From Armatimonadota bacterium (GTDB taxonomy: Bacteria > Armatimonadota > Armatimonadia > Armatimonadales > Armatimonadaceae), in contig JAYUUO010000119.1 in NCBI GenBank assembly GCA_043754515.1, forward strand, positions 1-12,741: a stretch of 12,741 nucleotides of DNA, given 5' to 3'. Positions 1 through 11,133 of this stretch are shown in pieces. The position numbers and the translations under genes were made by a program. Position 1 is the stretch's first letter; each line of letters begins with the position of its first letter. Below the pieces are notes generated by a model. The model was not told the origin of the DNA and did not search any database. It was given only the letters and a program-made list of their open reading frames with translations.

Positions 1-660
1 CGAGGCGGTTTCTCTGACCCTCTCAAAGCGAGCCGCCGTGTGGCTTTGAGCGGGTAGATAGACAAAATAAGCGCTTCGTGTCCGCCGTCACCGCTCCGCA
101 GTGCGCGGGGTCGGTCAGTGATTTACCTCTGCCAACCGCTTGTAAAGGTGGCACGGTGGTCTCGCCATGCCAGCGGATTTACCTGAACAAGGTCCCCTTG
201 CTCCTGGTAGCCTCGGTCGTGACCGACCACGGGGGAGAAGGGAGCGTGTTGTATCTGGTGACGAGCGACGTTACCCAGGTGTTCCCGCCGCGGGAACACC
301 GACTAGACGCTCCGGCGATGCTTGCCATGTACAAAAAGCGGTGGAAATAGGCGAAACGGGTTTCTGCCGGATCGAGGAGTTTCACAAGTCCCTCAAGTCC
401 GAGAAACCGAAGGTTTTCGCGAGCAACGCGGCGTTCGCGAAGTCACCGACCAAGCGGGTGCGGACACAGAGCAACCATTTTTTTGCGAGTCTGGTTGCCT
501 TCACCAAAATGGAGGTGTTAAGGGTTTGCACACGGCTGAATCATTTCGCGGTGAAAGCGAAGTTGTATCAAGCGGCACTCGTCGCGGCGTTACAGCGGCT
601 TTCCGAGATGAACACGGGCGACGTTCTTGCCCATATCACACCCTGACTGCGTAAGGTGAG
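1..660 (+). mobile_element. Decayed IS701-family (ISAba11-like) insertion sequence: 3' part of transposase pseudogene plus right TIR
   Basis: Frames stitch to PLKASRRVALS / RFVS..RIYL..VLYLVTSD..YKKRWK / IEEFHKSLK..SNAAFAKSPTKRVRTQSNHFFASLVAFTKMEVL..LNHFAVKAKLY, the C-terminus typical of this DDE transposase group. There are frameshifts, stops and short insertions. It ends in TGCGTAAGGTGAG (648-660), matching the MITE ends at 9051 and 9395. Confidence 0.85.
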
Positions 661-672
661 TTAAGGATAATT

Positions 673-1095
673 ATGGCGGCTAAAGATTCGTATCACAATC
701 AATGTGTCCACTCTCTCCAGAAGGACGGATGGCTTATCACGCACGACCCGCTGACGTTGCGCATCGGGAAGACCGATGTAATGATTGACTTGGGCGCGGA
801 ACAGGTCGTCGGAGCGGAATGGGCGGGTGAACGTATCGCGGTGGCGATAAAAAGTTTCATCAGACCTTCGGCTGTGTATGATTTGGAGCAGGCTCTAGGG
901 CAGTTTACCCTTTACAAGGATGTACTGGAGCGATCCGCCGATGACGCCGACCGGGTTTTGTATCTTGCAGTCCGCGCCACGACATACGAGGAGATTTTCG
1001 GCGAGCCGATTGGTAAAATGCTCGTGGAGAACAAACGATTGCGGTTAGTCGTGTTCGATATAAATACGGATAAAATAGTACAATGGATACCGTAG
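673..1095 (+). CDS. xisH: XisH-family protein (fdxN element excision controlling factor; PD-(D/E)XK-like fold)
   Basis: MAAKD.YH...LQKDGWLITHDPL, IDLGAE, IKSF, ALGQF, LYLAV, IVQWIP motifs; RBS AAGGA at 663-667; overlaps xisI. Confidence 0.92.
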   Translation: MAAKDSYHNQCVHSLQKDGWLITHDPLTLRIGKTDVMIDLGAEQVVGAEWAGERIAVAIKSFIRPSAVYDLEQALGQFTLYKDVLERSADDADRVLYLAVRATTYEEIFGEPIGKMLVENKRLRLVVFDINTDKIVQWIP

Positions 1096-1421
1096 CGAAG
1101 TATCGTCAGGCGGTTAGAGAAGTGCCGATGCCGCTTACGAAGCGGCGATATGCGAACGCGGATTTGGTGAACGAGGCTGTTTTCGATGTCAAGAACGACC
1201 GATACATCATCGCTTCACACGGGTGGCAAAACGGCACGCAGCGTATGCACGGCGTGCTGGTTCACCTAGACATTATCGGCGACAAGGTTTGGATTCATCG
1301 CGACGGCACGGAAGAAGGGATCGCCTATGACCTTGAGGAGGCGGGCGTCCCGAAGCAGAACATCGTTCTGGCATTCCATCAGCCCCGAGATCGCATGGTA
1401 TATGGGTACGCCGCGTCGTGA
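1083..1421 (+). CDS. xisI: XisI-family protein
   Basis: MDT..KYRQ, VFD..NDRY....GW, VHLDI.GDKVWIHRDGTEEGIA.DL..AGVPKQNIVLAFHQP, GYA; canonical overlap with xisH. Confidence 0.93.
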   Translation: MDTVAKYRQAVREVPMPLTKRRYANADLVNEAVFDVKNDRYIIASHGWQNGTQRMHGVLVHLDIIGDKVWIHRDGTEEGIAYDLEEAGVPKQNIVLAFHQPRDRMVYGYAAS

Positions 1422-1503
1422 CTCCCCCGGTCCGTTATTTACCAGCCAAGCAGAACGCGGCACGCAGGAAACCGCTTGACGAACCGCGAACAGTACCAAA
1501 ACA

Positions 1504-2730
1504 ATGGCTAAGATAACCGAGGTGCGGGTGATCGTGACGAGTCCCGGTCGCAACTACGTGATGGTGAAAATACTCACCGACGAGCCGGGTCTGTACGGCG
1601 TCGGCGACGCGACCCTGAACGGCCGCGAACTCGCGGTCGCCGCCGCGCTGACCGAACATATCGCGCCGCTCCTGATCGGGCGCGACCCCGACCGCATTGA
1701 GGACATCTGGCAGTATCTGTATCGCGGCCCGTACTGGCGCGGCGGTCCCGTGCAGATGACCGCGCTCGCGGGCGTGGACATGGCCTTATGGGACATCAAA
1801 GGGAAGCGGGCGAACCTGCCGGTCTACTCCCTGCTCGGCGGCAAGACCCGCGAGGGTGCGCTATGTTACACGCACGCGGGCGGGCGCGACGCGGTGGAAT
1901 GCGAGGACGAGGTTCGCCGCGCGATGGAGCGGGGCTTCCAGGTCGTGCGAGCGCAGGTCGCGGTTCCCGGCGCGACTTCGACCTACGGGACGCGCGGCGC
2001 GGTGGAGGCGGCATCGGCGAAATGGGGCGGCATGGGCGGGCTTCCGCCGGTCGAGGGCGATTGGGAACCACTCGCCTATCTGCGCGTCGTCCCCCGCCTG
2101 ATGGCGCACCTTCGATCCACGGTGGGCGACGCGGTAGAGATCATTCATGACGTCCATCAGCGTCTGACCCCGCAACAGGCCGCGCGGCTGGGCCGGGAGC
2201 TGGAGCCGTTCCACCTGTTCTTTCTCGAGGACCCGGTGCGCCCCGAGTGGAAGGAAGGGTTACGCCTCGTTCGCGCACACACGACTACACCGCTCGCGCT
2301 CGGCGAACTTCTCCACTCGCTGTACGATTGTCTCCCGCTTCTCGTCGAGCGGCTGATTGACTTCGTGCGGTGCGACATCGCCCACATCGGCGGCATCTCC
2401 GAGGCGCGGCGCATCGCCGCCGTCGCCGAGCCGTTCGGGATCCGCACCGCCTGGCACGGGCCGGGGGATATTTCGCCGATCGCGCACGCGGCGAACGTCC
2501 ACGTAGATGTTTCCCTGACGAACTTCGGGGTGCAGGAGATGGTGTTCTTCCCGCCGGAGGTGGCGGAAGTAATTTCCGGCGCGCCCGAATACCACGATGG
2601 AAGGCTGTGGGCGAGTGACGCGCCAGGCCTCGGTTGCGACATTGACGAGGTAGCCGCGAAACGGTATCCATACGACCCCGCCTACCTTCCGGTCTGCCGC
2701 CGCGCCGACGGCGCGATGCACGACTGGTAG
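1504..2730 (+). CDS. manD: D-mannonate dehydratase / RspA subgroup of the enolase (mandelate racemase) superfamily
   Basis: VIVTSPGRNYV, GDATLNGRELAV, IEDIWQYLYRGPYWRGGPV, DMALWDIKGK; metal-ligand motifs HDVH, LEDP, LGE; WHGP; C-terminal AYLPV.R..DG.MHDW. Confidence 0.9.
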   Translation: MAKITEVRVIVTSPGRNYVMVKILTDEPGLYGVGDATLNGRELAVAAALTEHIAPLLIGRDPDRIEDIWQYLYRGPYWRGGPVQMTALAGVDMALWDIKGKRANLPVYSLLGGKTREGALCYTHAGGRDAVECEDEVRRAMERGFQVVRAQVAVPGATSTYGTRGAVEAASAKWGGMGGLPPVEGDWEPLAYLRVVPRLMAHLRSTVGDAVEIIHDVHQRLTPQQAARLGRELEPFHLFFLEDPVRPEWKEGLRLVRAHTTTPLALGELLHSLYDCLPLLVERLIDFVRCDIAHIGGISEARRIAAVAEPFGIRTAWHGPGDISPIAHAANVHVDVSLTNFGVQEMVFFPPEVAEVISGAPEYHDGRLWASDAPGLGCDIDEVAAKRYPYDPAYLPVCRRADGAMHDW

Positions 2731-2750
2731 CAATATGAGTCTGATACACT

Positions 2751-3554
2751 ATGTCCGTGCTAAACGCCATCGAGATCCGAAACGTTGACAAGATTTTCCG
2801 CGTCCGCAAAGCCGCGTACGCCGGTCTGAAAGGGCAACTCGGCGCATTTTTCAAAGGCATCCGCGCCCAGACCGAGGCCAAGGTCGGGCTGGGCGATATC
2901 TCGCTCTCCATCGCGCCCGGCGAGACGGTCGCGCTGATCGGCAGGAACAGCTCGGGTAAATCCACGCTCCTATCGCTCATCGCGCGGGTGATGAAGCCGG
3001 ACACGGGCACCGTCACGTTCCCCGCAAGCCCCGACCCTGAACGGCCACGCCTCGCGCCGCTCCTGGAAGTTGGGGCGGGGTTCCACCCCGACCTGACTGG
3101 GACGCAGAACATCTTCTTCAACGGCTCCATCCTGGGACTTACCCGGGCACAGATGCAGGCGCGGTACGAAGACATCAAGGCGTTCGCCGACTTCGAGAAC
3201 GACATCTACTATGATGCGCCGGTGCGAACCTACTCGTCGGGCATGTACGTCCGGCTCGGCTTCGCGGTCGCGGTACACACCGACCCGGACATCATCCTGA
3301 TTGACGAGTCGCTCGCGGTCGGTGACGAAGCATTTCAGGAGAAATGCTACGCGCGCATCGCGGAGTTCCAGAAGGACGGGCGCACCATCGTCTTTGTGTC
3401 GCACGACATGGCGGCGGTACGGCGGGTGGCATCTCGGGTCGTCTGGCTGTCACACGGCAGGATCGTGGGCGATAGCGCGGGAGACGGCGGCGGCATCGAG
3501 CCGGTCATAACGCGGTACCACGAGGATCTATACGCAACCCCCGAAAAAAAATAG
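2751..3554 (+). CDS. ABC transporter ATP-binding protein, Wzt/TagH-like (polysaccharide/polyol-phosphate export)
   Basis: Walker A GRNSSGKST, LLEVGAGFHPDLTG.QNI, signature YSSGM..RLGFAVA, Walker B IILIDE.LAVGD..FQ.KC, H-loop VSHD. Confidence 0.9.
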   Translation: MSVLNAIEIRNVDKIFRVRKAAYAGLKGQLGAFFKGIRAQTEAKVGLGDISLSIAPGETVALIGRNSSGKSTLLSLIARVMKPDTGTVTFPASPDPERPRLAPLLEVGAGFHPDLTGTQNIFFNGSILGLTRAQMQARYEDIKAFADFENDIYYDAPVRTYSSGMYVRLGFAVAVHTDPDIILIDESLAVGDEAFQEKCYARIAEFQKDGRTIVFVSHDMAAVRRVASRVVWLSHGRIVGDSAGDGGGIEPVITRYHEDLYATPEKK

Positions 3555-3675
3555 CCACCCGGCACCCGATAATGTAGCCATAATCGCGACTAATCCTTAC
3601 AATGAGTGTCGAAGGGCTTAAGCGTTGATCGCGCACGCGCCCCCTATGTTACGTAGAGGGCGGGAGGAATTATAT

Positions 3676-4215
3676 ATGACCCAATCCGCAGCCAGCGAAT
3701 TCTGGGTGTCCGAGGGAGCAGAGGACGCCGTTCGCAAGACGAAGTTGACACTGAAGAAATTGGGCGAGCTGACCGCCGTCGTGCCCGGACAGCACGTGGT
3801 CGGAACAGTCGCATTCGGCATACAAAACGTCACGCTGAAAATCGCGTGGCGGCCCGAAGAGATAGAGACCAAAGTAGACCGCATGGTCACCGGCCATGCC
3901 ACGACCGAAACCAAAACGCTGGGCACCTTGCTCTGCGTCGAGGCGACTATAGAAGGGCGGGGCGCGACGGGGAACGACGCCGCGCTCCGCAACGCGATGG
4001 AGCGGTTCGAGGATGCCTACATGCATTACGACCGCACCGACTACCAGCCCGACCGGCTGGGCTTCCTGCCCATCACGATCATCGGCGTCGTAATCGCGCT
4101 TATTTTGTTAGGCGTGTTGCTGGCGAAGAAGACCACCCTGTTCCAGGCCACGCCGTCGTCATCGCCGAGCGCGTCCGCGGATGCGTCGCCGGATGCACCC
4201 TTTATCGCGCCGTAA
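3676..4215 (+). CDS. Hypothetical membrane protein (single C-terminal TM helix, Ser/Ala/Pro tail)
   Basis: GGAGG RBS at 3663-3667 before ATG 3676; GC-rich codon pattern; hydrophobic stretch FLPITIIGVVIALILLGVLLA followed by KK. Confidence 0.75.
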   Translation: MTQSAASEFWVSEGAEDAVRKTKLTLKKLGELTAVVPGQHVVGTVAFGIQNVTLKIAWRPEEIETKVDRMVTGHATTETKTLGTLLCVEATIEGRGATGNDAALRNAMERFEDAYMHYDRTDYQPDRLGFLPITIIGVVIALILLGVLLAKKTTLFQATPSSSPSASADASPDAPFIAP

Positions 4216-4232
4216 CCGTCCGTATCCGTCTC

Positions 4233-4270
4233 GTTGGTCCCCCTCCCCGGCGAAGAGAGGGAGGACTGGC
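4233..4270. terminator. GC-rich bulged hairpin between convergent genes (terminator or REP-like)
   Basis: GTTGGTCC-CCCTC ... GAGGG-A-GGACTGGC pairs with G-U; there is no clear U-tract. Confidence 0.35.
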
Positions 4271-4326
4271 GCGGCGGTAGCCGATCCGGGCCTGGTGACA
4301 GCGTTCCGGGTAGGCGATCTTAATCG

Positions 4327-5415
4327 TCAGCGTCGCGCCCCTTTATTAGAAACGGCTTGTGAGCCGACGCGGGCCGGATAAGGCACGTTTGGTCCTTTGG
4401 TGCTGTGCCATAGGATGCGGTTCAGCGCGACGACTTGTACCCTGGTTAGGTGATCCGGTTCGGAGAAGTTCATTCGCTCGCTCGCCGCCGCGCCGTAAGC
4501 GACGGCGGCGTTCTTGACATTCAGGTCTATCCGTGGGGCGTGTAACGTGTACGGCGTCAGGTCGAGTTTGCCCGCGAACGCGGCGTACATGGGCGGCGCG
4601 GTGGCATCGTACTGGGGCATCGGCGGTAGACCGAGGATAAGTTCTATCGTCCGCAACATCGAGACGGTGTTGTAGCGCGTGCCGTCCACTCTCCCGAGGC
4701 ACGAGTGAGGCGAGACCACGAACGCGGTCGTCCGGTGCGCGTCCACGTGATCCGCGCTGTCCTGCGCGTCATCCTCGATGATGAAGATCGCCATCTCTTT
4801 CCAGTAGCGCGAACGCGAGCAGGCCGCTATAATTTCGCCCACGCCTTGATCGTTGGAGGCGATACAGGCTTGTGGCGTGAACGCGCCGGGACGTGTCCCT
4901 TCGGTGTAATCCTCGCGGAGCGACATTATCATCAAGTTCGGTAAATTGTTTTTCTCGTACTGCTTCAACTCTGCCGCGAAGATGTTTCCGTTCACCGTGT
5001 CGCACCGCTTGTCGTAACCCTCACGACAGACGGCGGGCATGTTCCTCTCCGTGTTGTTCGTCGCCCACGTGAAACAGTAGGACGCGAACGACTTGCCCTC
5101 CCGCTCGGCGACGTCCCAGACGCGTCCCGCCGGGGGGTAGATGTCCTTGTCCAGGAGAGGCCAGTCGGCGTGCCCGCCGTACGCGAGCATCCAAGCCCGC
5201 TCGCCGATGTCGGTGCTAATAGCTCCGGTGCTCCATGGGTGGCCGTTCCCAGACACCTCGCCGCTACAGAGTGTGTTGTCGAGCGTCACGAACTCGCGCG
5301 CGATCTTGTGTTCGTTTGGTGTCACCTTTTCGCCGAACAGCGTCAGGGACGAGTCGCCGTTCCCGAGCGGTTTACCCTTCGCATCTTTCAGGTCACCCAA
5401 TACCTGATCATAAGA
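4327..5415 (-). pseudogene. N-terminally truncated alkaline-phosphatase-like/phosphoesterase domain (C-terminal half of YncE-propeller/phosphoesterase fusion type)
   Basis: YDQVLGD..GNGD..LTLFGE.VTPN.H..A.EFV.LDN...GEVS..GH.W, IFIIEDDAQD..DHVDAHR, TVSMLRTIELILGLPPM.QYDA. The expected upstream ENRT is replaced by a stop; no signal peptide or propeller is present. Confidence 0.8.
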
Positions 5416-5447
5416 TCAACAGACTGCCAGAGTTATGGTAACCCTTT

Positions 5448-5628
5448 AGGAGTTACGCGGTTCGTCAAGGGACGCGGGTTAAAACCCACGTCATCGGCGA
5501 AACAAGTACAGTCAAAACTTGTTTTGACGATTGCCTGTCTAGACGCGTTCCGCGCCGGACGTCGGGTACCCGCTCGCGGGTGGGACGGGCGAATATGGGA
5601 GGAGGAACGCACCAACCGCGTAACTCCT
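5448..5628. mobile_element. MITE-1: 181-bp non-autonomous element with perfect TIRs and target-site duplication
   Basis: AGGAGTTACGCGGTT (5448-5462) / AACCGCGTAACTCCT (5614-5628), flanked by ACCCTTT at 5441-5447 and 5629-5635. An alternative reading is a 16-bp TIR with a 5-bp CCCTT duplication. Confidence 0.9.
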
Positions 5629-5686
5629 ACCCTTTATTAACAACACATTAAGGCTCTGCTAAGAACACGACACGAGACTTCACCGA

Positions 5687-6406
5687 TCACCCGATCCCCT
5701 CCGCGATCCCGAACCCGATCAGCCCGCCGAGTATCGTGACACCGCCCACGACCAGGCCCGCGACGACCGCGGCTCGCCACGACGGCTCGCGGAGCGCGAC
5801 GCGGGCGAGGGGACCCAAACTCAAGCCGATTATCAGTTCGGCGACCACGATATAGAGCGGCGTGTGCGTGCCGGGGAGCATCCGGCAGAACTCGTACTGC
5901 CACCAGTGCGCGTGGCGTGCCATCTCCTCGTAGAACGGGATGTTGACCGCGCCGACAACCGCCGACAGCACCACCCCGCGCCACGAGCCGACGCGCTCCA
6001 CGAACCGTGCCCCGAGGTATCCGATCTGCGCCGAGACCAGCATCCAGGCAAGCGGCATCCACCAGGGCGACTCCCAGAGCATAGTGCTTTTCGCCGGCCC
6101 GTAGTCCAGTGTGCCAGTGAAACGGACACAAAGCGCGTCCGCGACCAGCTCCACGACGCCGAGGCAGAGCCCGAACAAGAGGAGCCGCGCCACCGCCGCG
6201 TCCCGGTAGCGCAGGATATGCGCCGCGAATATCGCCCCGTTTATCCCGCAGAGCAGAGCGGCGGTTCGTCCGTCCGACCACGGCTTGTCCGCGACGAACA
6301 ACACCAGAATCACTGAGGTCGCGATGGTAACCAGCACCGTTCGCAGACGCGCCCCCTCCCGGCTATCCGCGACCACTACCGGCACGCCCGGAAAAAAAGT
6401 TTTCAT
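5687..6406 (-). CDS. Uncharacterised multi-pass membrane protein
   Basis: 239 aa with about 7 hydrophobic segments; motifs ELVADA, TLDY, WWMPLAW, PFYEEMA...WWQY; divergent from comEA. Confidence 0.8.
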   Translation of the reverse strand: MKTFFPGVPVVVADSREGARLRTVLVTIATSVILVLFVADKPWSDGRTAALLCGINGAIFAAHILRYRDAAVARLLLFGLCLGVVELVADALCVRFTGTLDYGPAKSTMLWESPWWMPLAWMLVSAQIGYLGARFVERVGSWRGVVLSAVVGAVNIPFYEEMARHAHWWQYEFCRMLPGTHTPLYIVVAELIIGLSLGPLARVALREPSWRAAVVAGLVVGGVTILGGLIGFGIAEGIG

Positions 6407-6471
6407 TTCCGCCTATTTTACTGTTAGATCCAGGTCTCTCGCCTCGTTAGTGTAGGGAAGGGCGAAAAATT

Positions 6472-7521
6472 ATGAAGTGGGCAGGAATTAGTGGCGCGCT
6501 CGCGGGCACAGCGCGCGAGCGGCTGGGTATAGGGGCGGTAGTAATCGGGGTCATCGTCGGCTCCGGGCTGATCGTCTCCGGCTCCTGCCGCAAAGACAGG
6601 TCGGCATTAGGCACCGTCACGGTGTTCCCGGCGAAGCCGATCCGGGGGGCGGAGAGGCGGCCCGTTGTCGCGCCCGAGTCGCCGCGGACGGACACGATCG
6701 TCGTTTACGTGACGGGGGCAGTGAAGCGTCCCGGCGTGTACACACTCCCCGCGCACACCCGCCTGTATCACGCGATCCGGGCGGCGGGCGGCTTCAAGGC
6801 GAACGCGGTAACCGAGGCATTGAATCTCGCGGATCAGGCGCGGGACGGCGACCAACTTTGTGTCCCCGTACGCCAGAAAGTGGTGCCCGCCGCGCCCGCG
6901 TCCCGATCCGAAACCGCGCGGGGTGGAACCCGCCTGATTGAACGGTACGCGCGGCGCGCCCCCGCATCCTACCCGAACATCATTCGCAAGGCGGCACTCC
7001 CCGCATCGGTCACTCTCCCGCCGCTACCGGAAGGCGGTGTCGGACCCGAGGAGAGCGGCGAACCCATCGTGACCGTGATTGCTACCCCAACGCCCGCGCC
7101 CGGCCGCGTGCTAGATGGCACTCTACAAGCCGTCACGGAGGCAAGCAATACAGAGCCGCGTGTCGCTTCGGAGGGTGCGAATGTTGGCGTGGGACTCCCC
7201 CCGTCCGCTCGACCGTCGGTCGCCTTAACCGGCGTTATCCCCTTGCCCGCGACGGGGCGACGGGGCGCACGCGGCATGTCCCGAGCCAGTGCGCCACGCG
7301 GCGGCGTGAAGTTCAAGAATCCCGGCGATGGCGTGGTGCATATCAACAGTGCCGGAGCCAGCGAACTCGAACACCTGCCGCGTTGCGGCCCCGCCATGAG
7401 CGCGAAGATCCTCGCCTACCGCGCCCAGATCGGCAGGTTCACCGACCTGAAGCAGCTGATGGATGTAAAGGGGTGTGGGGAAAAGACGTTTGAAAAGTGG
7501 CAACCGTTTCTAGCTCTGTAG
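6472..7521 (+). CDS. comEA: ComEA-family DNA-binding competence protein (TM anchor, SLBB domain, long Pro-rich linker, two HhH motifs)
   Basis: VVYVTGAVKRPGVY.L....R...AI.AAGG, LNLA....DGDQL.VP; C-terminal HINSA...ELE.LP..GP.....I..YR...G.F....QL..VKG.GEKTFEK. Confidence 0.9.
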   Translation: MKWAGISGALAGTARERLGIGAVVIGVIVGSGLIVSGSCRKDRSALGTVTVFPAKPIRGAERRPVVAPESPRTDTIVVYVTGAVKRPGVYTLPAHTRLYHAIRAAGGFKANAVTEALNLADQARDGDQLCVPVRQKVVPAAPASRSETARGGTRLIERYARRAPASYPNIIRKAALPASVTLPPLPEGGVGPEESGEPIVTVIATPTPAPGRVLDGTLQAVTEASNTEPRVASEGANVGVGLPPSARPSVALTGVIPLPATGRRGARGMSRASAPRGGVKFKNPGDGVVHINSAGASELEHLPRCGPAMSAKILAYRAQIGRFTDLKQLMDVKGCGEKTFEKWQPFLAL

Positions 7522-7547
7522 CAGGTGTTTCAGTGTCAGGAGCAAGC

Positions 7548-7970
7548 TGGTCCGAGTTCAAAAACGAGGTGTGGACGATTCCCAAGGAGCGGGTAAAGAA
7601 TGGGCGAGCACACAGCATTCCAATCTCGCCAGAGGTAGCACGACTATTGGATACTGTCCGATACGGTGACGCGCCAAAAGAAGATAGACGGGATGAGAAT
7701 GAGTATCTATTTCATGCGAGACGGCAGGGTTGTATTTCTTCCAGGACTATTCATCTGGCACTTCAGCGGATCAAAGTTGCAAGCGGTCTCAAGCATTTCA
7801 CGGCACACGATCTGCGGCGCACCTACGCAACAGGTCTCCGCCGCATCGGTATACCGCGAGAAACAGTCGCACGTATTCTGAACCATACTTCTCGTTCCGT
7901 AACACTCGTCTACGATTAGTACGACGAAATGCCCGAGATGTCAGATGTATTTCATCTACCAGCAGGGTAA
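7548..7970 (+). pseudogene. Tyrosine recombinase/phage integrase C-terminal fragment
   Basis: WTIPKERVKNGRAHSIPIS, FTAHDLRRTYAT, ILNH, VTLVYD*YD. The N-terminus, including the catalytic Arg box I, is missing, and there is an in-frame TAG at 7917-7919. Confidence 0.88.
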
Positions 7971-7986
7971 GAGGAATCAATAGGGC

Positions 7987-8008
7987 GATTATTCCGCGCG
8001 GAATAATC
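7987..8008. repeat. Perfect 22-bp palindrome
   Basis: GATTATTCCGC|GCGGAATAATC. Confidence 0.85.
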
Positions 8009-8013
8009 CACGG

Positions 8014-8043
8014 CGGCACCGAGTAGCATCACTATCGGTGCCG
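8014..8043. terminator. Strong bulged hairpin downstream of the 8070-8591 gene
   Basis: CGGCACCGA-G-TAG catca CTA-TCGGTGCCG; lies 26 bp beyond the stop of the minus-strand gene; no long U-tract. Confidence 0.45.
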
Positions 8044-8069
8044 TGAATGAGTGTCAGCATTGAGGCGGC

Positions 8070-8591
8070 TTAGCAATCGCAGTTAAATAGAACTCTTTTC
8101 AGACGGTCGTAGGTATCCTGTGATCCTACGCCACCGTAATAGGTGTTGTCTTCGGGGTTGTACCCCTGGCTCCAATGCTTCCACTCGTTCTTAGTACTGA
8201 TGTCAAAGTGGAAGTCACGATTCGCTGCGAATAAAAGCCCGTCTGATCCTTCGTAGGATGCGTCGCCACCAGTGAAGTTGCCGTTCCACTCGTCGCCGGA
8301 GTCGGAACTCATGATGTCACAGACAAATGCCGTATATCCGACTGCATAAAACCTGAACTCTCCGTTTACTATCGTGCAACTCCCCCGTTTGATTTCAGCG
8401 AATTGGAACGCTTTGTACAGGAGGCCGTTCGAGACGAGATCGGCGCCGATCGGGTAGCCAGATACCGCGACAAGTGCTCTGCTGTCCGATTCCGTGAGAC
8501 GCACCTCGCGAGTCAGGGACAGTATAGTACCGTGCTTACACGGCGAAGATTTCAGTTGTTTCTCCAGGGAATCCTCTTCGAGAGTGGTCAT
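8070..8591 (-). CDS. Hypothetical protein, 173 aa (C-terminal pattern recalls DUF6294-type proteins, unverified)
   Basis: RBS GGAAGGA upstream of ATG; open frame in lower-GC DNA; pattern F.F.EI..G.CT ... SSD..D.W ... terminal Cys. Confidence 0.65.
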   Translation of the reverse strand: MTTLEEDSLEKQLKSSPCKHGTILSLTREVRLTESDSRALVAVSGYPIGADLVSNGLLYKAFQFAEIKRGSCTIVNGEFRFYAVGYTAFVCDIMSSDSGDEWNGNFTGGDASYEGSDGLLFAANRDFHFDISTKNEWKHWSQGYNPEDNTYYGGVGSQDTYDRLKRVLFNCDC

Positions 8592-8699
8592 GCTGTTAAT
8601 CCTTCCGCGCCAACCAGAGTGGCAAAGTCTCGTCCATTTGCTAGCACCGGAAAATGTTACTCCAAAGTATTTCTTCTGTCAAACACGCCCCGTCCTGGT

Positions 8700-9018
8700 G
8701 CAAGTGCCATTCGTCGGGTGGTAGAAGTCAATCCTGCCACCCATGGAACATGGGTACCCGCAAGCCAAACGTGTTCCCGCTGTGGGAACATTGCTAAAAA
8801 ACCGTTGAAAGAGCGTTGGCACTATGCGAAAAGACCCTAAAGGTCTTTTGCGCGACTGTCCGATTTGCTTTTTGTCTTTGGACAGAGACACTAACGCTTC
8901 GTTCAACATATTGTAAGCCGCGCAAGGTTACTGTGAAGCAAAAACCGCTGTGGGAACACACAGCGTTGTCGCTATAGCGGCATAGAAGCCACGGGGCTTG
9001 TCCCCGGGGAGTGTTCAC
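8700..9018 (+). mobile_element. tnpB: IS200/IS605-family remnant: TnpB C-terminal zinc ribbon/RuvC-III pseudogene plus right end
   Basis: ASAIRRVVEVNPA..SQTCSRCGNIAKKPLKERWH, then after a frameshift DCPICFLSLDRDTNASFNIL. Right end is GAAGCCACGGGGCTTGTCCCCGGGGAGTGTTCAC (subterminal hairpin plus TCAC at 9015-9018). Confidence 0.88.
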
Positions 9019-9050
9019 TTGATCAAACCGATGAAGCTACCCATTCTTAA

Positions 9051-9395
9051 CCCACCTTACGCAGTCAGGTTGTGATCGCCCCTCAAATGCCCCGTTACGA
9101 GAGGCATTTTTCAGAGGTATGGCATGCCGAGATTTCTTTTCCCTATTGCCCGTCAACTGAAGTTGCGGGCTCGGTGGTTTCTGCGAAACCGGACGTGCTT
9201 CGCACGAAGCAGGCGTGTCCAAACGAGGGTTTGTGAGCGCATCTCCTCGTGCGAAGCACGTTTGGCGTGGCGCAAATCGGCTCTGCCGATTTCGCAGAAG
9301 CCACTAAGCCCGCTAACTTCAGTTGACGGGGCAAGCAGAAGGAATCATTTGTGATAATGTGATCGTCCTGTTTTAGAGGTATTGCGTAAGGTAAG
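9051..9395. mobile_element. MITE-2: 345-bp IS701-related non-autonomous element with target-site duplication
   Basis: TIRs CCCACCTTACGCA (9051-9063) / TGCGTAAGGTAAG (9383-9395); TTCTTAA at 9044-9050 and 9396-9402. The reverse complement of 9046-9076 matches 635-665 at 29/31. Confidence 0.88.
9146..9334. repeat. REPIN-like long imperfect palindrome nested in MITE-2
   Basis: Outer arms CCCGTCAACTGAAGTTGCGGGCTCGGTGGTTTCTGCGAA / TTCGCAGAAGCCACTAAGCCCGCTAACTTCAGTTGACGGG; inner arms ACGTGCTTCGCACGA / TCGTGCGAAGCACGT; each arm contains its own short hairpin. Confidence 0.8.
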
Positions 9396-9449
9396 TTCTT
9401 AAGATGTTGCGGGGCTTGCCCCGACGAGTATGTCATTTATTGGGGAAGA

Positions 9450-10353
9450 CTATTGTTTTGGATTTTGCTTCTTGCTACCGGGAACACGGAGGAGTTGTTT
9501 TCCCCCCAACTTACTGCCCACTTCAATCACTTGATCGTTTCGCCAATGGGCGGTTTCCCACGAATCCGGCGTTTCCAAAACGACGACGCCTTTTTGCACG
9601 TCGGCAACCCAAAGCGTGCCAACAGGGTTCCGTCCCATCACTAAACGCCCCAATGGACTCCAATACGTCTCCTCTTGCAACGCTTCGGCGATGGTTTCGC
9701 CCTTCCGGTTTATCAAAAGGTCGGGCGGCAGATATTGGTCGCCGTCGCCGTCGCTGTATACGACCACCTGGGGCATATGCATTTCAATTTTGCGCGGCCC
9801 GTTAAATAAAGCAATCTCGCTTAAACACACGTCGTTATCAGGGCTGGGCGCAAACCCAACCAGTTCAATCCGCAGTTTGGTAATGGCTTGCCGGGGCAAA
9901 GCGACCTCGTGCCAGCCCATCTTGTCGCTCAAACGAACGGTCTTCACGGTTTTGCTATGGGCGGCGAAGCTCGTGACGCGCAGTTCCGTGACGCGGTTGT
10001 TGCGCTTGAAAACGTCGCCGTTTTTGTTGTAGCCGTTCATTATGTGGAGGCTGTCCATCACAACCGGGTGTTTCGGCATAAGCAACAAGGCGTATTATTT
10101 CCCGTCCAATGCCTCGTCTACGCTGTCCTACGGCTTGCCTTTGCCACCGCTGAAAACCCACGCGGTTTCGGACCGGTTGTCAAACAAATGGGTGAGCGGA
10201 TAGCCCGTGTGTTTGCGCCCGGTTTGGAAGTTTTCCGACGAATACACTTTCCAATCGCTCCATTCAATGGTCGCGGCGTGTGCGAACCGGTTTATCCCGG
10301 CCCCACCTACTCAGCAAAATGCTCAGGATAAAAAGCGCGATGGTTTTTTGCAT
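9450..10353 (-). pseudogene. Secreted protein pseudogene with discoidin-like/NADase-type glycan-binding domain
   Basis: ATG 10353 MQKTIALFILSILLS (signal peptide), frameshift near 10287-10308, then FAHA-ATIEW..HLFDN.SETAWVFSG. In-frame stops at 10128-10130 and 10095-10097 precede IMNGYNK....F.RNNRV..L and DVCLSEIALF. Confidence 0.75.
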
Positions 10354-10373
10354 TGATTCTCTTCTTTCTTTCA

Positions 10374-11133
10374 CTACGGAAGTTCGTACTCCCATTCTTC
10401 AAACGCTGGGACGGGCAAGTAATCGGAGTCGGCGCAGGAGCGGAGCCATTGCGCGGCCCGTAAATCGCAGTGGGCGGCGTTGAGGGCGCGTTTTCGTGTT
10501 TGAGCAGGGGGAGCAAAGGAGCCGCGTGTTCATACAGTAGTTGGCCCAGCCCGCCCGCCACGTCCCTTCGGGTTTCGGTGTCACGAACAAGCAGAACAAG
10601 GAGTGGGTCAACTGCGGCTTTGTCGCCCCGTATACCCAGCGTTGATTGCCGCGTTTTTTCGTACCTCAATGGCCTCATCGTTCAACGCGGCAATCAACGC
10701 TTCGGTTATTTTTTTGCCCGCTTTTTCTGTCCTATCGCACCTATCCAGTGCCCACGCTGCCGAAGCGCGAACGACTGTATCCGGGTCGCGCAGGGCGGCA
10801 AGTAACGGCAGCCAGACCCGGTTATCGCCCAATAAGCCCAGTGCATCGGTGGCGGTCGCACGTTTGGGCGCGTCGGAGCCGCTTCTGCCGCTCAAATCGG
10901 CGATGAGTTGGGAAATTCCCACTCCAAGGAGTGCCGCAAGGTGCGCTTTGATCTGACGGCGGGCGGGCATATTGGGTGATTGGAAAATGCGCGTCAGGGT
11001 TTGAACAGTTTCGTCGTCGGCAAAAAGGCGCAGGGCGTAAGCCACCGTGATACGCGCTCCGACCTCCAAAACGGGTTCTTCCAGGCCCTGCTGCAAGCCG
11101 CTCAGGGCAGTGCTTTCGGCAGCCGCGGTGGTT
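10374..11133 (-). pseudogene. HEAT/PBS-lyase repeat protein remnant, frameshifted
   Basis: ALGLLGDNRVWLPLLAALRDPDTVVRASAAWAL, ALIAALNDEAIEVRKNAA; after a shift near 10642, LGIRGDKAAVDPLL..L. No credible start codon or RBS. Confidence 0.75.

Follow-up and report, generated by a model that had tools for sequence, protein, structure and literature searches.

Very small hairpins have inserted throughout the genome of the Armatimonadota bacterium that contains the stretch of 12,741 nucleotides analysed here (the window). They very probably form families of mobile, non-autonomous elements, each consisting of a single DNA hairpin of about 18–34 nt. In the following, G000 denotes the genome of the window, while G001, G002 and G003 are other genomes of the same genus.

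Hairpin families

Alignments define 48 non-redundant indels of 18–34 nt, 22 of which are 21–27 nt in length. The excess of hairpins over controls implied by the original prediction is evident among them: 37 of the 48 fold better than 95% of their shuffles, compared with 21 of 137 neighbouring segments. A generic detector of element ends plus pairing was abandoned in favour of family patterns because its background was too high in this 62% GC genome. Scanning for four families gives 136 copies in G000, 105 of them outside one MITE. The family A scan gives 87 matches compared with 0–2 in two codon shuffles, and those for families B and C give 30 and 18 matches, with none in the control. A loose pattern for family B' stays near the control with 0–4 matches per genome. 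The family patterns tested exceed the control only within the genus, and in the window no Rfam match reaches the gathering score.

The families resemble each other in shape and not in sequence. An element starts with a C, followed by an outer stem of 3–5 bp (often bulged), AAA, a variable inner hairpin, TTT, the returning stem and a 3' TG or CA. When the family B pattern is given 11 free positions and no pairing is required, all 31 matches nevertheless have inner stems that are paired or nearly so, with at least two of four Watson–Crick pairs in each. Reading these 31 matches by eye reveals two-sided changes at three pairs of the inner stem. Compensatory change of this kind can be mimicked by template switching.

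Element ends and lengths are fixed across families and two genomes. Identical cores recur at unrelated flanks (one family C core at five sites and one family A core at three), and elements are inserted into one another. Together with the empty sites in homologues and the two-sided stem changes, this upholds the original proposal of an SDR-like insertion system of small hairpins, conserved in structure, variable in sequence and biased to mobile DNA. A CRISPR spacer on contig C61 contains half a B element. The lone B half-sites in G000, 16 and 13 in number, turned out to be variants or nested hosts, or to lie at contig ends or in a CRISPR spacer, and no larger autonomous element with family B ends was found.

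Insertions in the window

Sites in the window were tested by alignment to homologues from G003 or to other copies in G000. The first 662 positions (1–662, plus strand) hold the 3' part of a dead IS701-family element (NCBIfam NF049921, 304 bits), the 5' part of which lies at the end of contig C184; a second G000 copy is present on C150. The whole copy contains eight inserts, seven of which are defined against L002, an open G003 copy of 406 amino acids, and the eighth, of 27 nt, against L004, L005 and L045. Positions 1–17 (minus strand) are the end of a 30-nt family B element that starts on C184 (gap in L002 and L043). A 30-nt hairpin follows at 80–109 (plus strand), in a register that can slide against L043, and has a better-paired copy on C150. 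The in-frame 27-nt hairpin at 276–302 (minus strand) has perfect arms of 11 bp; it is a gap in L044 and L045, and against the latter it aligns as 275–301 and can slide. The same site is also filled in L002, with paired changes on both arms. Further on, a 23-nt family A element at 348–370 (minus strand; gap in L043 and L045) shifts the frame, and a 24-nt family A-like insert occupies 397–420 or 398–421 (plus strand; gap in L043).

The 3' remnant of a TnpB gene with an IS605-type right end (8702–9013, plus strand) was aligned to L047 and L049 from G003 and carries three inserts. A short hairpin at 8739–8756 (minus strand, end approximate) adds 18 nt net, split as 16 + 2 in one alignment, and has a near-identical 19-nt counterpart on C157. 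A 31-nt family B' element lies at 8824–8854 (minus strand) and a weakly folding insert of 27 nt at 8913–8939 (plus strand), both as gaps in L047 and L049. The latter resembles a decayed or truncated B' element, a kinship judged by eye from its likeness to B' cores of G003.

Two MITEs are affected as well. MITE-1 (5447–5629; about 50 BLAST matches in the genome) has been enlarged by hairpin insertions, and contigs of X4 and X5 hold a shorter form in which 5487 is joined to 5583. Within it, a family A element at 5494–5537 harbours a second, nested family A element at 5509–5530, seen as an inner gap of 5508–5529 against C59. MITE-2 (9049–9397) has IS701-type ends around an inner palindromic repeat (9149–9330), with inverted repeats I3 and I7 and homologues in G001 and G003. 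Its inner repeat contains a 30-nt B'-like insert at 9267–9296 (plus strand), a gap in L059, with the L048/L059 pair as further evidence; the homologous site in G001 is filled by a different 30-nt hairpin.

Seven of nine sites predicted beforehand are thus insertions with empty sites in homologues. The predicted coordinates were right at five of them, with clean gaps (276–302, 348–370, 398–421 or 397–420, 8739 to about 8756, and 8824–8854). Two other insertions are longer than proposed: 8913–8939 instead of 8913–8931 (27 rather than 19 nt) in TnpB, and 9267–9296 instead of 9266–9289 in MITE-2. The remaining two do not hold. The segment 9084–9108 does fold (−5.3 kcal/mol) and has the same length in three G003 homologues of this MITE end (L055, L058 and L060), which leaves a hairpin for which no empty site was found. 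The segment 10287–10308 (minus strand) fits no family, folds weakly (−3.2) and belongs to the leader of a broken secreted-protein gene; the leader length in the closest homologue, P0002 (58% identical), fits a single-base frameshift instead of a 22-nt insert. Three elements had been overlooked, those at 1–17 and 80–109 and the nested pair at 5494–5537. As expected, none was detected in manD or comEA.

Junctions and target sites

At 26 of the 34 sites that fit a family pattern, the net insert exceeds the core by one base. Flank profiles give only a weak C-N-A-N motif on the 5' side and no fixed target like HIP1; of these 34 sites, 19 have C at −4 and 15 have A at −2. Among non-nested A and B elements, C is found at −4 in 27 of 42 and A at −2 in 25 of 42. 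The same base occurs on both sides in 14 of 18 family C elements (5.4 expected) and in 16 of 25 B' elements (8.9 expected), which is not predicted by precise peel-and-paste. Families A (14 of 38, 12.7 expected) and B (8 of 28, 5.5 expected) have no such one-base repeat. Guide–target pairing of the 5' end of the element with the left flank seemed a possibility in family A and failed in family B, and no guide–target covariation was seen between families. Empty target sites have no special fold (2/48).

Genomic distribution

Outside the MITE, 21 of the 105 copies are located on 89 kb of DNA marked by terminase or CRISPR-spacer matches, a 14-fold enrichment to which a single contig, C143, contributes 14 copies. 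By gene class, the density is 5.2 per 10 kb in IS genes versus 0.03 in other genes, in a tally for which the list of phage contigs was picked after the elements had been seen. On contigs with neither an IS nor a phage mark, 597 kb of intergenic DNA contain 12 copies. Intact phage genes carry elements in frame, and in a gp37/68 gene three of them form an in-frame stack of 26 amino acids with the conserved columns retained. Since such in-frame copies exist and unmarked intergenic DNA holds so few, the predicted residence in 'dead and mobile DNA' is correct as to mobile DNA and too narrow as to dead DNA. Prophages show no strand bias. IMG/VR yields two single matches to the family A pattern (one a confirmed hairpin) and none to B, so no element-rich free phage was found there; no relatives of a phage ParB locus were found.

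These distributions probably reflect a real preference for mobile DNA beyond the effect of selection. It is plausible, if on the unlikely side, that the same mobile hairpins insert anywhere, with host DNA cleared by selection and dead IS and MITE lineages accumulating inserts as they are copied in trans. Several IS copies indeed have inserts in common (C119/C150, C54/C153/C251 and L178/L180), 31–35 MITE-1 copies trace back to one or two events, the empty targets are unremarkable in fold, and the phage genes keep their frame, which implies strong selection. Indiscriminate insertion accounts poorly, however, for the 12 copies in unmarked intergenic DNA as opposed to the 21 in far less, mostly coding, phage-marked DNA. 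It also agrees poorly with the comparison of 284 host genes (265 kb aligned), which revealed no family-type indel although the 24-, 27- and 30-nt forms preserve frame. In view of the in-frame copies in intact phage genes and the sparse copies in unmarked intergenic DNA, the earlier suggestion that the elements are neutral and purged from useful genes explains part of the pattern and not all of it.

Comparison with known systems

The Nostocaceae reportedly contain dispersed single hairpins of about 21–27 nt (SDR1–8) that keep their structure while the sequence varies, and that are said to nest and to reside in minitransposons. SDRs are not known to have a mobiliser. The elements presented here share with SDRs their size class, dispersal as single hairpins, conserved structure with variable sequence, nesting and residence in minitransposons. 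Filled and empty sites, compensatory stem change and nested copies are all found, and the 21–27 nt class makes up just under half of the indels. By these described features, the elements appear to work like Nostoc SDRs. They differ in belonging to another phylum, in reaching 30–34 nt, in their +1 junction rule, in their strong concentration in IS and prophage genes and in the in-frame stacks in phage proteins. SDR5 inserts inside HIP1 (PMC5861425, PMC4390886), whereas only the weak one-sided motif is seen here.

REP/REPIN–RAYT systems (PMC3116915, PMC3733652, PMC8266576, PMC6006769) combine bulged hairpins of 20–40 nt in lineage-specific families with a single-copy domesticated HUH gene, and the same combination is encountered here. 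In contrast to REP/REPIN, our elements have no GTAG or CGTC tetranucleotide at the base of the hairpin or in its flanks, are single units instead of doublets, and lie within mobile-element genes instead of in the gaps that separate genes of the host; no element directly adjoins the candidate HUH gene. The ends of IS200/IS605 and of their non-autonomous derivatives (PATEs) likewise combine a hairpin of 20–25 nt with a target motif confined to the 5' side. Here, however, a single hairpin takes the place of separate left and right ends, the target is degenerate where theirs is a fixed tetranucleotide, and each insertion brings one added base. Integron attC cassettes at secondary sites also involve structure-based recognition of a single-stranded hairpin and a short target motif (bioRxiv 2022.09.11.507474; see also PMC2811028). 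Our elements are far shorter than attC and have no IntI, cassette cargo or GWT motif. Rickettsia palindromic elements add peptide to proteins as in-frame palindromes (RPE; PMC3733652). The present hairpins are several times shorter, and the genes that contain them belong to phages and IS, not to the host.

How elements of under about 35 nt move has been an open question since the Nostoc SDRs were described. With dozens of filled/empty pairs from this genus, and with a junction rule, a target motif and a few candidate enzymes to hand, the question becomes testable in vitro. The bias to IS and phage genes and the in-frame stacks in phage proteins point to an unrecognised route by which transposons lose their activity or become MITEs and by which loops are added to phage proteins. 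In these genomes, the inserts would also disrupt gene calls and conceal IS copies.

Possible mobilisers

In the scheme towards which we lean slightly, a trans-acting enzyme would recognise the folded single strand, excise the hairpin plus one flanking base and join it into a single-stranded target; phage and IS DNA that is replicating or entering the cell would offer such targets most often. Selection would then clear nearly all insertions in host genes and those out of frame in phage genes. HUH chemistry is quite possible for such an enzyme. TnpA and TnpA-REP bind hairpins of 20–25 nt in single-stranded DNA, require bulges and select 5' sites (PMC6006769, PMC8266576). Our best guess is the product of a single-copy gene after trpB on C71, a Y1 HUH nuclease similar in kind to TnpA and RAYT, and its identification as the mobiliser is tentative. 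The protein matches Pfam Y1_Tnp, retains D-H-x-H and Y-x-x-x-Q, and is present in all four genus genomes and in 15 of 71 class genomes, a wider range than that of the family patterns tested, which exceed the control in the genus alone; a PDB sequence search reaches only E of about 0.2, to IS608 TnpA. No sequence link was found between any enzyme and the elements. The gene has no adjacent element; a B element does lie at the contig end, 1.1 kb downstream, but its core recurs in a copy on C291 and it was probably carried there by an IS. Prophage hairpin density does not separate 10 HUH-positive from four HUH-negative genomes. In a small test on IS, two hairpin gaps were found in the HUH-positive G023 and G025 and none in G004, G006, G007, G028 and G029; G028 has four hairpins in 5.9 kb of IS.

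A recombinase of the tyrosine or serine type, possibly phage-encoded, may instead recombine a folded or circular mini-substrate at a one-base core, much like integron integrases acting on attC; we consider this doubtful. Consistent with it are the +1 rule, the direct repeats of one base seen in families C and B', AAC/GTT in many stems and the many tyrosine recombinases of the genus and its prophages. IntI places single-stranded hairpin cassettes into short GWT sites (bioRxiv 2022.09.11.507474). However, none of the four genus genomes encodes a protein above the TIGR02249 cut-off, the AAC/GTT pair adjoins the loop and not the hairpin base, and families A and B lack the repeat.

It would be bolder to see the elements as mutagenic defence, in which a domesticated HUH nuclease retained by the host (or else a recombinase of phage origin) inserts self-propagating hairpins of 20–30 nt, which would rank with the smallest mobile elements described, into incoming or replicating mobile DNA. 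IS transposases would be frameshifted, host genes spared, and phages would survive only by in-frame stacks that add new peptide loops. We regard this as speculative and improbable.

Capture at breaks of reverse-transcriptase copies of a small RNA, made by a type XIII retron or a DGR, is hardly more than a slim prospect. Retrons produce hairpin ssDNA, and a type XIII retron RT is present in G000, G001 and G003 and a DGR-like RT in G000. Against this, the G000 retron operon has no element-like hairpin inside or upstream (one weak scan match lies in a G003 contig), no RT was found in G002 (82% complete) even though it has family A, Ku was not found in any of 32 family genomes, and dozens of distinct cores speak against a single template.

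It is very improbable that the hairpins are immobile and form anew wherever they occur, through template switching or snap-back repair. Template switching does explain why loops alternate between reverse-complement forms and why certain elements have grown into perfect palindromes, but flanks are not copied (duplication scores of 0.14–0.41 for hairpin-forming indels of 21–30 nt), and neither the recurrence of cores at unrelated flanks nor the constancy of ends and lengths would follow.

Agreement with other assemblies

Among the contig pieces listed, those of run X4, which comes from the same study but carries no flag as a source, agree letter for letter over 409–5511, 5634–9322 and 9408–10694 and differ in two letters over 1–288; none of the pieces bridges 369–408 or 5512–5633. 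No strain without a window insert is seen among the listed contigs, contigs being the only material covered, and no listed holder is recorded as RNA. Contigs from two other studies span 89–365 (X6) and 103–368 (X11), with differences like those of the second G000 copy. All these genomes are MAGs in fragments, with many copies close to contig ends, but assembly artefacts are practically dismissed by the identical letters from another run, by these spanning contigs and by insert sites shared with G003 in diverged sequence.

Hairpin inserts and their empty sites

The inserts of about 18–34 nt form a real group of mobile, SDR-like hairpins and are markedly biased towards IS and phage DNA. When an open 406-residue IS701 transposase (NCBIfam NF049921; locus L002) of the same-genus genome G003 is aligned to the IS701 remnant (window 1–662 and the end of contig C184), it shows seven clean gaps of 30, 30, 30, 30, 30, 23 and 24 nt. 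An eighth insert of 27 nt (276–302) is also present in L002 and is missing from two other G003 copies. Comparison of the TnpB remnant with its G003 homologue (L047) gives gaps of 18, 31 and 27 nt, and comparison with L059 gives one of 30 nt within the inner repeat of MITE-2 (9049–9397).

The original prediction listed nine sites in the window as insertions. Comparison with homologues bears out seven, with empty sites at each; five are at the predicted coordinates, and two (8913–8939 and 9267–9296) are insertions but have ends that were corrected by alignment. At 9084–9108 three homologues show no empty site, and 10287–10308 more plausibly belongs to a leader that carries a one-base frameshift. 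Three further elements, at 1–17, 80–109 and 5494–5537, had not been predicted. As to assembly artefacts, the same sequence recurs in contigs from another run, with 369–408 and 5512–5633 unbridged among the pieces listed, and contigs from two other studies span 89–368.

Families and structure

Four families are distinguished, with patterns written here with a leading C. Family A (cores of 21–25 nt) consists of C, an arm of 3–6 nt, AAAC or AAAG, a short loop, the mirror of these and TG. Family B (28–33 nt) reads CAGAG-AAAY-stem-RTTT-TCTTG, family B', mainly from G003, CGCGY-AAA...TTT-CGC(A/C), and family C CGGAAC-AAA...TTT-TTCC. Rarer types are 18–21 and 27 nt long. The window is contig C119 of the genome G000, which comprises 5.13 Mb in 313 contigs. 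Pattern scans of G000 give 136 copies (87 A, 30 B, 18 C and one B'), 31 of which are accounted for by copies of MITE-1; two codon shuffles give 0–2 A and no B or C.

Identical cores occur in unrelated flanks, and many copies lie within other copies. The family A scan has no power to show covariation because pairing was a requirement of the scan. A family B pattern with 11 free positions has 31 matches (23 in G000 and eight in G003); the inner arms are complementary or nearly so in all 31, with two-sided changes at three pairs.

A self-BLAST of G000 yields 37 indels of 10–60 nt; those in a cluster at 20–30 nt mostly fold. In a sample of relatives (120 loci, 488 kb, chains longer than 3 kb being skipped), 103 redundant gap rows reduce to 48 sites of 18–34 nt. 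Of these 48 alignment-defined indels, 37 fold better than 95% of their own shuffles, compared with 21 of 137 neighbouring segments; ordinary indels and decayed elements are among the 11 that fold weakly. Only two of the 48 empty sites fold.

Bias to mobile DNA

The proposed bias to mobile DNA holds. In a score-based list the density per 10 kb is 5.2 in IS (19 in 37 kb), 3.6 in phage/MGE contigs (56 in 155 kb, contigs picked after the elements were seen), 0.26 in other intergenic DNA and 0.03 in other genes. Element-independent criteria select the only two terminase contigs of G000 and four contigs matched by CRISPR spacers; the 89 kb chosen in this way holds 21 of the 105 non-MITE copies, a 14-fold excess over the rest, with 14 of the 21 on C143 and none on C260. 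Among 127 ORFs beside 40 element regions, Pfam identifies IS630, IS3, IS256, IS21 and IS4/5 remnants, recombinases and phage genes at many sites, and many of these ORFs have no match. An alignment of 284 host genes to a 0.69-Mb sample of the same-genus genomes G001–G003 gave 11 in-frame indels of 5–14 residues, none of them family-shaped; four IS alignments contain three distinct element inserts.

In phage ORFs the best frame is mostly unchanged across the element. One gp37/68 gene carries a B element with two A elements inside it, a stack that adds 26 residues in frame; since the lengths of the A cores are not divisible by three, either the junction bases varied or the stack moved as a unit. 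Armatimonas is the named source of one phage-gene homologue. Type I-E cas genes and an array adjoin prophage DNA (C138:1834–9704 and C143). Of 70 spacers in the C61 array, seven have matches on contigs C172, C87 and C260; a C143 spacer has one on C97. On C155, C196, C246, C307 and C123 a common element lies inside apparent RHS-repeat gene fragments, as judged from the peptide pattern only.

Taxonomic range and known kinds

Exact element patterns match Armatimonadota records only, and these are possibly the same assemblies as the genus genomes rather than independent ones. One family A pattern has 43 matches in G000 and six in G003, where the arms are different and paired; the other 299 phylum genomes searched have 0–3, the control level. 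A stricter version has three matches in G002 and none in 69 other class genomes. The B pattern is present in two of 32 family genomes, and look-alike hairpins occur in a G001 phage. IS genes of two other genera (G023 L228 and G025 L236) carry hairpin inserts of 20–21 nt with empty sites. Their sequences are unlike those of the G000 families. Insertion of this kind may thus occur throughout the family, each lineage having its own sequences.

Among known kinds, the SDR set of Nostoc comes closest. The elements lack at least one defining feature of IS605 derivatives and of MITEs, and likewise of REP/RAYT systems and attC sites as described in PMC3733652 and PMC3116915 and in bioRxiv 2022.09.11.507474, respectively. 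Rfam gave no match in the window, and no account of such elements in Armatimonadota was found in literature that covers few subscription papers; the set is apparently undescribed.

Junctions and candidate mobilisers

At 34 non-redundant gap sites matching a family pattern, the net length minus the core is +1 in 26, 0 in four, +2 in two and −1 in two. The same base stands before and after the core above chance in families C (14/18) and B' (16/25) and not in A (14/38) or B (8/28), where the core is preceded by a T. The 5' side is enriched in C at −4 and A at −2, with 22/28 and 18/28 in B and 27/42 and 25/42 in non-nested A and B together. The 3' side is flat in B and nearly flat in A, but in B' T stands out at +2 and C at +6. 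Shared ancestry of sites was lowered via flank similarity and may partly remain. The elements are discrete hairpin units that nest, with a bias to mobile DNA, a +1 junction and a motif on one side. A trans-acting enzyme would recognise the folded single strand of the element.

The four Y1 matches in G000 include neither an intact IS200 TnpA nor a TIR-flanked HUH gene. The genome does have a lone single-copy HUH gene directly after trpB (C71:14139–14621; L088:1414–1899) in which D-H-x-H and Y-x-x-x-Q are kept. It occurs in all four genus genomes and in 15 of 71 in the class, and looks domesticated from the TIR-flanked group of L083/L084. Its chemistry would fit that of a mobiliser (PMC6006769, PMC8266576). 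Two correlation tests of this gene against the hairpins were weak or null. A recombinase fits the one-base repeats at the junctions better than HUH chemistry does. IntI was not found in the four genus genomes searched. Reverse transcriptases are present with no visible link to the elements. These are the RT of a type XIII retron operon with a SWIM protein (C263:17472–24488; L331), also present in G001 and G003, and a DGR-like RT of G000. The hairpin-rich stretch upstream of the retron may hold its ncRNA. We take C197:29310–30838 (L334), with an Avd-like gene, an RT and a template-repeat-like stretch, to be a DGR-like locus. Ku was not found in any of the 32 genomes of the family, nor were B half-sites around a larger element.

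Other features of the window

A XisH–XisI pair (673–1421) adjoins the IS701 end. The phosphoesterase gene at 4327–5447 is apparently truncated in its 5' part at MITE-1 (5447–5629). A C-terminal fragment of a tyrosine recombinase (7497–7919) directly follows comEA, where a stretch of lower GC begins. The reverse strand at 9450–10355 holds the broken gene of a secreted protein that has a PF25302-like domain; one frameshift and two in-frame stops lie upstream of the part of the gene that is open.
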